64,000 bases of DNA from Eledone cirrhosa (lineage: Eukaryota), in NCBI GenBank assembly GCA_964016885.1, contig OZ024749.1, forward strand, positions 46,252,001-46,316,000. The letters are read 5' to 3'. Of this stretch, positions 2,815-58,340 are shown piece by piece (within the stretch, counting starts at the first letter, position 1; the number at the start of each line of letters is the position of its first letter). The translations under genes and the position numbers were made by a program. The notes below the pieces were generated by a model. The model saw only the letters and a program-made list of their open reading frames with translations. It was not told where the DNA came from and ran no database searches.

Positions 2815-2997
2815 ATATACACACTTATATCTATCTATCTAACTATATATATATATAAGTAGATAGAAAGGATATTTAATTTGTTGGAAATTCATCAAAT
2901 ATAAATGTTTATAACTGATTCAGAGCACTCGACAGTTTCCTGGAGTTAATATTCAATGATATTAAATAAATGGAAACTATATTTATAAAACCATATT

Positions 2998-3059
2998 TAT
3001 TCTATTATATATATTTCAAGGGTACCACAAACTTTGGGACGCTTTCATCAGATAAAATA
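2998..3059 (-). ncRNA. Minimal type I hammerhead ribozyme (left arm of palindrome, more decayed stem II)
   Basis: Minus strand: tattttat-CTGATGA-aagcgtcccaaagtttgtggtaccctt-GAAA-tatata-TA-atagaata. Palindromic tatata in stem III; stem II has mismatches. Confidence 0.7.
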
Positions 3060-3178
3060 CAAAGTGTGTTTTATAAATGTTGACATAGCCAAGGAAACAT
3101 ACCTTATCAGTTGAATTTCCCTTGGATAGTCAAGGGAAATTCAACTTGGCTATGTCAAAATTTATAAAACACACTTTG

Positions 3179-3240
3179 TATTTTATCTGATGAAAGCGTC
3201 CAAAAGTTTTTGGTACGCTTGAAATACATATAATAGAATA
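3179..3240 (+). ncRNA. Minimal type I hammerhead ribozyme (right arm of palindrome 2955-3282)
   Basis: tattttat-CTGATGA-[aagcgt ccaaa agtt tttgg t acgctt]-GAAA-tacata-TA-atagaata. Stem I is 8 bp (one G-U), stem II 11 bp with a 1-nt bulge, stem III minimal. Predicted cleavage after AUA at 3232. Confidence 0.8.
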
Positions 3241-3278
3241 ACATGGTTTTATAAATATAGTTTCCATTTATTTAATAT

Positions 3279-3339
<61 letters not shown>

Positions 3340-22543: not shown

Positions 22544-22625
22544 ATATATATATATATGTGTGTATGTGTGTGTGTGTGTGGTTTATGCATGTATATATAT
22601 ATATATATACATGCATAAACCACAG

Positions 22626-22715
<90 letters not shown>

Positions 22716-37181: not shown

Positions 37182-37910
37182 TTCTACATGTGAGTATGTA
37201 TGCATGCCTATTTGTACGTGTGTACGTATGAATGTGTTAATCTATATGTTTATAAAGGTGTGTATGCATATATGCGTATATATATATATATATATATGCA
37301 TGTATCTACGTATGTGTGCATATATGTATAGGTTGTCTCTATTATATTTGTGTAGATGTAAGTCTCCAGCGCTTAATTTCTTTATCTGCCCCCCCCCCTC
37401 CCCTCCTCTATATCTCTTTCTTTCTCTCTCTCTCGCTCTCAATGCCATCATCTCTCTATTGACTTCTGTCTGTCATACACTCTTTCTCTCTCTCTTTCAT
37501 TGTCTTTCTCTTACCATTCCCCTTCTCTCTCACTCTCTCTCATTAGCTCTGCTAGTCAACCATTCACGCCATTTTACAACGTCGTAAATCGCCGCCAAAC
37601 TTCACCATAAATTTTCATGGCCACAAAACGATTTGTTCTTTCCGGTCATCTCATTTCATCAGTCTAAGCTGTCTGTCCTTTGTTCTCTACGTGTGTATGT
37701 ATGTATGTTTGCAAGTATGTATGTATGTATGCATGTATGCAATTATCTATTTATGTATGTATGCAAGTATGTTTGTATTCATATATGTATGCAGACAATA
37801 TGTGTGTATGTGTATATATATATATGTGTATGTGCGTGTGTGTGTGTGTATATATATACGTATATATATATATGTATATATATATATAAATATATATATA
37901 TGTGTGTAAA

Positions 37911-38064
37911 TGAAGTAATTCCGTCGGAAAAGTCCAGGAAAAAAGAGTGCTCTATGTAGGTAACAGAGCTTAATAGTTATGTAATAAACAACATAAGGCA
38001 ATTATTCCATTTACCAGTGGTTTCTTAAAAGCCAAAAAATTTGCTTTCAATCATCAGAATGAAA
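37911..38064 (-). mobile_element. Hammerhead-containing putative Penelope-like 3' end (pLTR), family B
   Basis: Ribozyme followed by ~95 nt and then a TA/CA tract; homologous to 42132-42240 (aagta.ttccg...ggaaaa.agagtgctctatgta...aacaaca.aag...tccatt.acca). Confidence 0.55.
38005..38064 (-). ncRNA. Type I hammerhead ribozyme (left arm of palindrome 37973-38158)
   Basis: Minus strand: tttcatt-CTGATGA-ttgaaagcaaattttttggcttttaa-GAAA-ccactgg-TA-aatggaa. All core nucleotides are intact. Confidence 0.8.
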
Positions 38065-38066
38065 AA

Positions 38067-38126
38067 TTTCATTCTGATGATTGAAAGCAAAGTTTTTTGC
38101 TTTTAAGAAACCACTGGTAAATGGAA
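38067..38126 (+). ncRNA. Type I hammerhead ribozyme (right arm of palindrome 37973-38158)
   Basis: tttcatt-CTGATGA-[ttgaaagcaaa gttt tttgcttttaa]-GAAA-ccactgg-TA-aatggaa. Stem I is 7 bp, stem II 11 bp, short stem III cc/gg. Predicted cleavage after GUA at 38119. Confidence 0.85.
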
Positions 38127-38151
38127 TAATTGTCTTATGTTGTTTATTACA

Positions 38152-38195
<44 letters not shown>

Positions 38196-42700: not shown

Positions 42701-42954
42701 GGAAAACCATTTGTTTCTATTGCGGTGGCTCTGAAGTCTACGACCATAAATCGGAAGTATCCACATAGAGGACATATAGCAGGGTTTCGTAAATGTTATT
42801 ACATATATATATATTTGAGAATCTAGCTGTCGATACGGCCGGACCTCAGCCGTCGGGGTCCTAACACTTTTCCTATATATACATATATATACATATATAT
42901 ACATATATATATATATGAAGTAAGAATATTTTCGAAACAGCGAGCGAGTTTGAA

Positions 42955-43172
42955 ATATATATACATATATTAGAAATATAAGCTATCGCCGTATTTTGAC
43001 TAAAGAAATTATTTAGCCTGATAGTGGGGTTCAGAACCCTCGGAGAAATGGAAAAAGATGAGTATTGTATGTCAATTCTCATCTTTTTCCATTTCTCCGA
43101 GGGTTCTTAACCCCATCATCAGGCTAAATAATTTCTGTAGTCAAAATACGGCGATAGCTTATATTTCTAATA

Positions 43173-43185
<13 letters not shown>
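42955..43185. repeat. Inverted repeat (~113-bp arms, 5-nt loop) ending in (TA)n
   Basis: attagaaatataagctatcgccg...gatgagtattg tatgt caattctcatc...cggcgatagcttatatttctaat. Confidence 0.95.
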
Positions 43186-43220
<35 letters not shown>

Positions 43221-43266
43221 ATATATATATAATATAAGATCAAAAGATGGTTAAAGGAGTTCCATG

Positions 43267-43337
43267 TATTTTATTATGCGCATTTCAAAAACAAACATCA
43301 TCATGCAATAATATTTGTGTTTTCATCAGATAAAACA
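43267..43337 (-). ncRNA. Minimal type I hammerhead ribozyme
   Basis: Minus strand: tgttttat-CTGATGA-[aaacacaaatattatt gcat gatgatgtttgttttt]-GAAA-tgcgca-TA-ataaaata. Stem II has 16 positions with 3 G-U pairs and 1 mismatch; stem III is the palindrome tgcgca. Confidence 0.85.
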
Positions 43338-43497
43338 GGAGAACATGATATGAAGGCTAAAAAACACTTGTGGATAGTGCAGTTTTAAAGCAACATATCA
43401 TGTATACTCCAGTATACTCCAGTCCTACAAACTGTAGAGTGCTTCTTATCCGATATCTGCATTGCTTTATTGTACTACAATAAAACTCACCTCCTAC

Positions 43498-43557
<60 letters not shown>

Positions 43558-55286: not shown

Positions 55287-56016
55287 ACTGCTTCAGTATA
55301 TATGGGACTCTATCTGTGTGCATTTATGTACGTAAATGAATAAACACCAGTGCTTTTGCATGTGTTTACCTCTAATTCTATATCTTCGTTTGAAAGTATA
55401 AGGATACTTTCCTCCTTTTTGCCAATAAATAAAGGAAATAATAATCATTTACTCTGGCCAAAATCTCCATCATTTTTCCTTACACTGCTGCATTGAAAGA
55501 TATGTAAAGGTTCATTCAAAGATTGTCTTTCCTGCTAGAAACATTGTCACCTAGCATCGTAAACAAATCATTCACAGCAAACCAGAAAACATCGCTGAGA
55601 AGACTGTTAAAGAAAAATATATATAATTTACAAAAGAAAAGAAAATCAAGGACAATTTACATTACATTATCAGAAACAAAATCAGTCTGCTACCTTTAGA
55701 TCAGCATCCTATCAACTAACTTTTGAAGCGAGAGAAGTTCAAAAAAGAAATATCAAAATATATATATGGTAATCCGTTTACAGAACGTAAGACGTGTGAG
55801 ATGAGAATGAAATATTTTAAATTTAGATTAGACTCCATCTACCACATCGCTTGTATTTCTTTCTTCTTTTTGTATATGAGAATCTCTCTCTGGACCCATG
55901 CAAATGCATGTACATATACTCACATATACATGTGCACATATATATATAAATATATAACGAAGGAAATGTGGTAAGGAACCAGATGGACCATAACGCACCA
56001 AAGTACTCAATACTTA

Positions 56017-56052
56017 GGGTAGTAGAGTGGGTAGTTACCCACTCTACTACCC
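56017..56052. repeat. Perfect 17-bp-arm hairpin abutting a TA tract
   Basis: gggtagtagagtgggta gt tacccactctactaccc. Confidence 0.9.
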
Positions 56053-58186: not shown

Positions 58187-58228
58187 CCTACTTGGGTATG
58201 TATCTTTCCACCCCCCTCTTTCGATCTC

Positions 58229-58297
<69 letters not shown>

Positions 58298-58340
58298 CGA
58301 GATCGAAAGAGGGGGTGGAAAGATACATAGCCCAAGTAGG
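58187..58340. repeat. Palindrome with (TA)n centre
   Basis: cctacttgggtatgtatctttccacccccctctttcgatctcggta-(TA)n-taccgagatcgaaagagggggtggaaagatacatagcccaagtagg. Confidence 0.95.

Follow-up and report, generated by a model that had tools for sequence, protein, structure and literature searches.

Closest Described Systems

The closest described relatives of the element reported here are the C-terminal EN+ Penelope-like elements (PLEs) of the Hydra clade (Craig et al., 2021, PMC8557442), which, according to the accessible part of that work, as a rule target (TA)n and carry hammerheads, and whose protein is marked by DKT, CxCx5C, CxxC..E and N..CxH. Type I hammerheads in pLTRs, single motifs derived from truncated copies, dependence on dimers, tails and inverted arms have all been published already, as far as the accessible texts go, and dimer cleavage is credited to Lunse et al. 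in the accessible part of PMC6765202. The insertion studied here, in a stretch of 64,000 nucleotides from Eledone cirrhosa (contig OZ024749.1; hereafter the window), shares with the Hydra clade the single RT plus GIY-YIG frame, the DKT, CxCx5C, CxxC and CxH motifs, (TA)n targets, a pLTR hammerhead with palindromic helix III, partial tandems, an inverted truncated arm and a tail at one end. It differs in its unit of 3.7 kb (generally under 3 kb in that clade), in a tail of ∼95 bases (30–40 given for PLEs), in having RWT in place of RWK, and in its stem II, which spans 16 positions and retains a C.Y mismatch. The Octopus bimaculoides family listed in the accessible part of the same paper has another hammerhead sequence. 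Going by this comparison of hammerheads by eye, the present element represents a family that is new, though of a known kind, and separate from the octopus family listed there; the terms hammerhead, ribozyme and Hydra are absent from the accessible text of a 2026 paper on octopus repeats (PMC13282606).

The motif itself resembles the PLE minimal hammerheads of Cervera and de la Pena (2014, PMC4209133), whose accessible text describes type I motifs with a long helix II, a short palindromic helix III and a predicted dimer; most of these are single and come from truncated copies, and some lie close together on opposite strands. Unlike those motifs, the present one has no unpaired base after position 9 and has A-U, not G-C, at 10.1–11.1. 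Outside the Hydra clade, two internal sites at which reverse transcription starts, with a spacing equal to the tail, were shown in vitro for Poseidon of Anolis carolinensis (Frangieh et al., 2024, PMC11167929). The present element would share with Poseidon this pair of starts, a hammerhead upstream, AT-rich targets and the nicking of both strands. Poseidon belongs to another clade, however, and in the accessible text its starts are placed within the frame, in an AC-rich stem-loop, and its protein-binding motif is left unmapped, whereas the two ends of the present element are both located in the 5′ UTR, each of them immediately 5′ of a hairpin that is repeated and covaries.

The insertion is very likely the 3′ end of a Hydra-motif Penelope-like element in (TA)n, with a hammerhead predicted to depend on a dimer or on the protein and likely kept by selection in the transposing lineage and not locally. 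The ribozyme is ordinary for its class, adding a new, young and very numerous family; beside this motif of known type, the bulged hairpin is the less ordinary part of the insertion.

The Insertion and Its Copy Number

The insertion, 270 bases between two (TA)n tracts, is a repeat with the following parts:

43177..43231, no strand: (TA)n target, left side; border with the element blurred by TA-like bases
43230..43398, minus strand: pLTR, the 3′ end of a Hydra-clade Penelope-like element, 5′-truncated ∼165 bases before the 3′ end
43399..43412, no strand: head-to-head junction, CATG plus a 10-base duplication of 43413-43422
43413..43500, plus strand: tail, corresponding to the start of the 5′ UTR, which comes after the pLTR in full elements but is inverted here relative to the pLTR arm
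43500..43554, no strand: (TA)n target, right side

The pLTR differs from a young sister copy at 1 of 172 bases, and is continuous with the 3′ UTR of three ORF-bearing copies (L061, L062, and L068). The CATG at the junction likely represents a short snap-back of the cDNA end, a mechanism that we infer. A pattern for the family matched the genome 18,069 times (control, 0), its 3′ flank 24,029 times (3′ ends), and the exact 71-base hammerhead sequence is present in 4,468 copies. A general hammerhead pattern found at least 43,116 motifs against 7 in the control, compared with the ∼9,000 given for Xenopus tropicalis in the accessible text of PMC4209133, although the search methods differ. The first-pass annotation had placed a hammerhead on the minus strand at 43230..43500, and this is real, with the motif itself at 43337-43267 and the interval representing the two ends of an insertion. 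The motif had been called "solo"; a single motif does lie here, but it does not stand alone, being the pLTR of a retrotransposon with over 18,000 copies.

Metazoan non-LTR retrozymes also combine a type I hammerhead with high copy number, in non-coding head-to-tail tandem units without a frame of their own. The 43230-43500 unit is short, non-coding, very numerous and often palindromic, and carries a type I hammerhead, as a monomer of a non-coding retrozyme (a circular RNA parasite) or a small DNA transposon might. That origin is highly unlikely, however, given that the unit is continuous with the 3′ UTR and frame of an RT-coding, autonomous element, that its truncation points vary, and that 79 loci showed no array of the short unit arranged head to tail; unlike the retrozymes, it is the end of a coding element. 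Truncation is frequent at -165, coinciding with a CATATG site, and the CATG boundary gives a hint of a short master. A separate master starting at CATG was nevertheless rejected, as many different sequences precede that boundary.

The Parent Element and Its Protein

Of 20 fetched stretches, 4 contain frames of 738–821 codons beside these ends, and in L068 two pLTRs in direct orientation lie 3,709 bases apart. The product of a full copy, P0001, has 800 residues, with an RT and a C-terminal nuclease in one frame and YRDD at residue 357. P0001 has 18 homologues at 29–38% identity, and no match in Pfam or in a sequence search of solved structures; the best fold match to its structure model (mean pLDDT 72) is telomerase RT (TERT), with an E of 3.5e-8. 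P0001 therefore has the single frame with telomerase-like RT of the Hydra clade, together with DKT (not DKG) at residue 123, CxCx5C at 659–667, CxxC..E at 759–765 and N..CxH at 778–789. The (TA)n targets, the pLTR hammerhead, the tandem and inverted arms and the one-sided tail are likewise those of the Hydra clade. The nuclease was assigned from motifs, a GIY-YIG-like motif being present at 679–695 without a CCHH motif. One cysteine in this motif is absent at that place in most aligned homologues, and the N-terminal motif reads RLRWT where most aligned homologues have RWK. Membership of the Neptune clade was ruled out, P0001 being without the CX2-5CxxC linker (Neptune-type finger). An Asn/Pro/Thr-rich insertion of 70–80 residues before the CxCx5C linker (∼575–655) is modelled as disordered and is missing from 13 aligned homologues.

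The Hammerhead Motif

The motif on the minus strand is composed as follows:

43267..43337, minus strand: type I minimal hammerhead motif, in the order stem I, CUGAUGA, stem II, GAAA, palindromic helix III, AUA site
43337-43330 with 43274-43267, minus strand: stem I, 8 bp including one G-U
43329-43323, minus strand: CUGAUGA
43287..43322, minus strand: stem II, 36 bases, 16 opposed positions made up of 15 pairs and a C.U mismatch (position 4), with a GCAU loop
43313/43296, 43310/43299 and 43307/43302, minus strand: U-G pairs of stem II
43286-43283, minus strand: GAAA
43282-43277, minus strand: UGCGCA, the helix III word
43276..43283, minus strand: AUGCGCAU, self-complementary, an 8-bp helix III predicted between two ribozyme copies
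43274..43275, minus strand: predicted cleavage site, 3′ of the A at 43275 (AUA site), by analogy to the hammerhead consensus
After stem I of the motif, minus strand: ACAUGG

The CUGANGA, GAAA and UH core in this order, with helices I and II, makes the motif type I, and the short palindromic helix III, predicted to be able to join two copies, is that of the PLE minimal type. The window has 30 CUGANGA sites, and since 5 of them fit the hammerhead descriptor and none did so in 100 shuffled windows, the motif is beyond chance. Rfam gave no hammerhead up to E=10 in 43232-43499, the family threshold not being reached, and none up to E=0.5 in the loci of 13 relatives; over the whole window, the matches listed (150 of 353) contained just microsatellite-driven miRNA matches. 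The 71-base motif is no more stable than its shuffles (z -0.44). As a monomer in the catalytic fold it has a folding energy of -9.3 kcal/mol, near the minimum of -10.6, and the duplex of AUGCGCAU with a second copy is predicted at -10.5 kcal/mol. Cutting is predicted to need a dimer or the element's protein. An extension of stem I beyond ACAUGG was ruled out, shared changes there disrupting the pairs.

The G-U pairs were said in the first-pass annotation to be specific to the minus strand, and this was confirmed: three U-G pairs are present, and stem II folds at -9.1 kcal/mol on the minus strand vs -2.5 kcal/mol on the plus strand. By simple arithmetic, three G-U pairs in a single copy would occur by chance 1 time in 8, which is weak evidence taken alone.

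Related Families in the Window and the Genome

Two further pairs of hammerheads in the window belong to relatives of this element:

2865..3284, no strand: palindrome 1, head-to-head ends of a sister Hydra family (limits approximate)
3059-2998, minus strand, and 3179-3240, plus strand: palindrome-1 hammerheads
2946-2924, minus strand: palindrome-1 tail hairpin
37910..38158, no strand: head-to-head ends of a third, more distant family (limits approximate)
38064-38005, minus strand, and 38066-38127, plus strand: third-family hammerheads
37969-37946, minus strand: third-family tail hairpin

An architecture in common with palindrome 1 had been proposed, which agrees with the homology of the ribozymes and with palindrome 1 being the end of a sister family. 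Stem III had also been contrasted as tgcgca here and tatata in the 3179 ribozyme. UGCGCA is indeed the word here, but TATATA sits in the 3059-2998 arm, and the 3179 copy reads TACATA, which is not self-complementary (+1.0 kcal/mol). The sister family has 12,861 genome matches, including a full copy (L111) with two direct hammerheads and a broken frame 44–61% like P0001. The third family has 4,635 matches vs 2 in the control, and nuclease pieces between its ends are 38–40% like P0001. Both sister families have the C.Y mismatch at position 4 of stem II (43319/43290, minus strand, in the window copy; the 3197/3217 region in the sister family) and keep ACAUGG or AUAUGG after stem I; judged from sequence, these two features may make a helix I-II contact.

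A fourth hammerhead family (L167, L169, L174, L180, and L182) has ACCUUUGGU as helix III and the same tail hairpin. Directly beside the insertion, window 42920-43175 holds another repeat, a 220-base palindrome in (TA)n with an extension of ∼35–40 bases on one side and no complete hammerhead. It is present in many copies (1,243 candidates, of which 40 were scored), and resembles the end of a further Penelope-like family, perhaps one of the Naiad type. Short inverted arms around (TA)n occur at window 58200-58326 and 22560-22641 and are the source of spurious miRNA matches.

Probable Selection on the RNA Fold

Whether hammerheads merely ride along with these elements is raised in the accessible part of PMC8557442, and the hammerhead was dispensable in vitro according to that of PMC11167929; a natural test of the upkeep of fold and core bears on whether they matter for transposition. 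A sample of 100 copies was taken among the matches listed, using a flank pattern without overlap with the ribozyme, all from the first 26 Mb of one contig, and 81 of them span the ribozyme. Alleles present in at least 4 copies comprise 8 in the stems, all of which keep pairing on the ribozyme strand, 0 at the 11 core sites and 17 in 59 flank sites. Alleles in 1–2 copies number 31 in the stems, and the 27 that could be scored divide into 24 that break a pair, 2 that keep it and 1 at the mismatch. Shared changes (8 keep, 0 break) thus differ from private ones (2 keep, 24 break) with a p of 2.5e-6 in these 100 copies, or of 1.6e-5 if one 3-copy stem allele that breaks its pair is counted as shared. 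For the shared changes, core vs flank alone is not significant (p 0.10).

Because inherited stem changes keep pairs and private ones mostly break them, the fold appears to be held during transposition and to decay afterwards. Private changes are as frequent in the core (9.1 per 1000 bases read) as in the upstream flank (11.6), and selection is for this reason assigned to the transposing lineage. The fold is thus likely selected in that lineage, on the evidence of these sequences, and decays after insertion. The earlier suggestion of selection on the RNA fold, made from structure conserved despite sequence turnover, stands in this form, with pairing kept through turnover and in all 8 inherited stem changes, but nothing indicates selection at the window copy.

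Covariation among family members had been suggested as a check, and two-sided changes of this kind are present. Among 102 distinct stem II sequences from the two sister families, positions 1–3 and 5–9 are each paired in 79–98, and pair-for-pair alignment shows two-sided changes between the families at pairs 3, 5, 6, 8 and 9. Pairing is therefore maintained across relatives, although the shuffles used for comparison ignore relatedness. Position 4 is C.C or C.U in 98 of the 102. The usual helix III words are TATATA, TGCGCA and TATGTA, the last self-complementary via G-U on the ribozyme strand only, and words that are not self-complementary are TACGCA (4 of the 102) and TTCGCA (2).

The fold could also be kept in the same element for a job other than cutting, such as RNA pairing via helix III or protein binding, with cleavage slow or late. 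Few copies start precisely at the cleavage site, namely 37 of ∼24,000 ends (57 in the raw count, less 20 internal indels recognized by eye), and the template RNA would consequently be mostly uncut or re-joined. Two control positions gave 14 and 18 (raw counts of 19 and 25, less 5 and 7), but the excess at the cleavage site is weak and confounded by ATA microhomology, which may account for it, and a hot spot of such starts was not accepted. Slow or late cleavage would also suit the low in vitro rates of such motifs (accessible part of PMC4209133) and the anole element, whose ribozyme-dead mutants inserted normally in vitro and for which no RNA reads ending at the site are reported in the accessible part of PMC11167929. 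The anole motif did cut, however, once protein was added (same source), and the 11 sites of the catalytic core have zero shared changes here. Distant relatives were also available from marine metagenomes, and among the best 80 of 488 (28–40% identity) the same core follows the frame on the sense strand in 30 and on the antisense strand in 2. A non-cutting role is accordingly possible but doubtful.

Mutation bias offers another source of strand-specific G-U pairs, in that paired RNA edited from A to I and copied back to DNA would turn A-U into G-U. An A/G exchange does underlie 6 of the 8 shared stem changes, and in one run the differences over the 43230-43500 family are just A>G and T>C. Such a bias adds G-U but cannot purge breaking changes, of which ∼14 shared non-A/G ones are expected from the flank rate and 0 occur at four or more copies (p ∼4e-6). 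Two of the three G-U pairs of the window copy alternate with C-G, a C/U change, and editing cannot yield the two-sided changes between families (A-U, G-C, C-G, and U-A). This makes editing an improbable source of the pattern, in comparison with selection in the transposing lineage. As an observation in its own right, 8 sites in L061:5090-5350, a family end corresponding to about window 43230-43403 plus the tail, differ at 2–15% of depth in run X6 and at <0.1% in X1 and X2, X6 being another sample of the same study. The changes are all A>G (5) or T>C (3), are seen in 9–31 contigs each and never have a 5′ G on the changed strand, and one of the sites is the cleavage-site A. The pattern reads like A-to-I editing of both strands, as expected if head-to-head copies form double-stranded RNA; octopus is described as rich in double-stranded RNA structures and hyper-editing in the accessible part of PMC5625713.

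The host might have co-opted the window copy, whose motif is intact, as a working ribozyme for the processing of one of its transcripts. The copy is 1 base in 172 off its sister copies and its 71 bases are identical to 4,467 others, however, and its intactness therefore reflects youth. There is also no second copy of the 43230-43500 family within the 64 kb to supply a dimer, and no host gene was recognized among the frames of the window. Co-option is very improbable, and there is no sign of selection at this copy.

Head-to-Head Arms and a Proposed Insertion Mechanism

Among the head-to-head junctions of 79 loci and the window, the tail is on exactly one arm in 31 of 37, on neither in 5 and on both in 1; some of the 5 tail-less junctions are inner junctions. 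In 25 hand-chosen pairs, the arms differ by 1.8% within an insertion vs 8.8% between insertions, and the partner arm is the closest or tied in 18 of the pairs and not the closest in the other 7. The 43230-43500 family has two fixed 3′ ends ∼95 bases apart.

A mechanism can be proposed in which the element protein nicks both strands of (TA)n and reverse transcription begins at two internal sites of one RNA, primed from the two target strands. The first cDNA would start at the pLTR end, run through the hammerhead and stop after ∼165 bases, and the second would start at the tail end and stop after ∼90 bases, the two then being joined head to head. A longer second cDNA would give a palindrome such as palindrome 1, and each start site may be set, as we infer, by a bulged hairpin 3–7 bases 3′ of the start. 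The "solo" hammerhead is then most likely a by-product of insertion, with a second, inverted arm that ends inside the tail.

The Bulged Hairpin Beside the Insertion Ends

The hairpin in the window insertion is the following:

43416-43443, plus strand: bulged hairpin 1, ACUC-CAG-loop-CUG-UA-GAGU, then GCU; a twin follows the tail end in full elements

A consensus RCUC-stem-loop-stem-UN-GAGYRCU is found in the tails of all three hammerhead families of the window, and full elements have the hairpin twice, in each case a few bases 3′ of one of the two insertion ends. Where copies stop, the stop lies ∼3–7 bases before a hairpin, as read by eye. In the 43230-43500 family, 39 of 121 first ends continue into the hairpin, 9–12 bases past the anchor, and the second hairpin copy is reached by 5 of 77 tail ends; GAA replaces GAG in hairpin 2 in 2 of 5 full copies. 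The sister family has 19 of 55 first ends and 2 of 22 tail ends that continue into the hairpin, and the third family 12 of 33 first ends, with the second hairpin in 0 of 14 tail ends from a sample that held no full copy.

In the same 80 of the 488 marine relatives, the hairpin pattern with no pairing demanded gave 77 sense vs 8 antisense matches. The 66 distinct hairpins are paired at inner pair 1 in 60 (31 C-G and 27 U-A) and at inner pair 2 in 49, numbers that were matched by 0 of 5000 shuffles, which ignore relatedness. Inner pairs 3, 4 and 5 are paired in 40, 34 and 21 of the 66, pair 5 being without excess. G-U and A-C (21 vs 16) do not discriminate RNA from DNA. Twins 44–83 bases apart occur in 19 of the 80 loci and a single copy in 23, many of the contigs being too short for both.

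The hairpin has no Rfam family in the 13 loci scanned and is undescribed as far as the accessible literature that was searched goes. The twin goes unmentioned in the accessible text of PMC8557442, yet it is visible by eye in 4 of the 6 new consensus sequences given there (in one with a mismatch). Its position and covariation make it likely that the bulged hairpin positions the start of reverse transcription. We somewhat favor the wider proposal that the hairpins of the Hydra clade each dock one RT of a dimer and fix the start a few bases upstream, such that twin priming leads to tails, solos and palindromes. If true, this would give those retroelement RTs that are closest to telomerase a defined element by which the template is positioned. 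The twin hairpin is a small and movable candidate for the unmapped RNA signal of the two start sites, and its role is testable with an existing kind of assay. A further match to the hairpin pattern lies at window 56002-56028 (minus strand), in sequence that recurs in several fetched loci, and may be the end of another family or due to chance.
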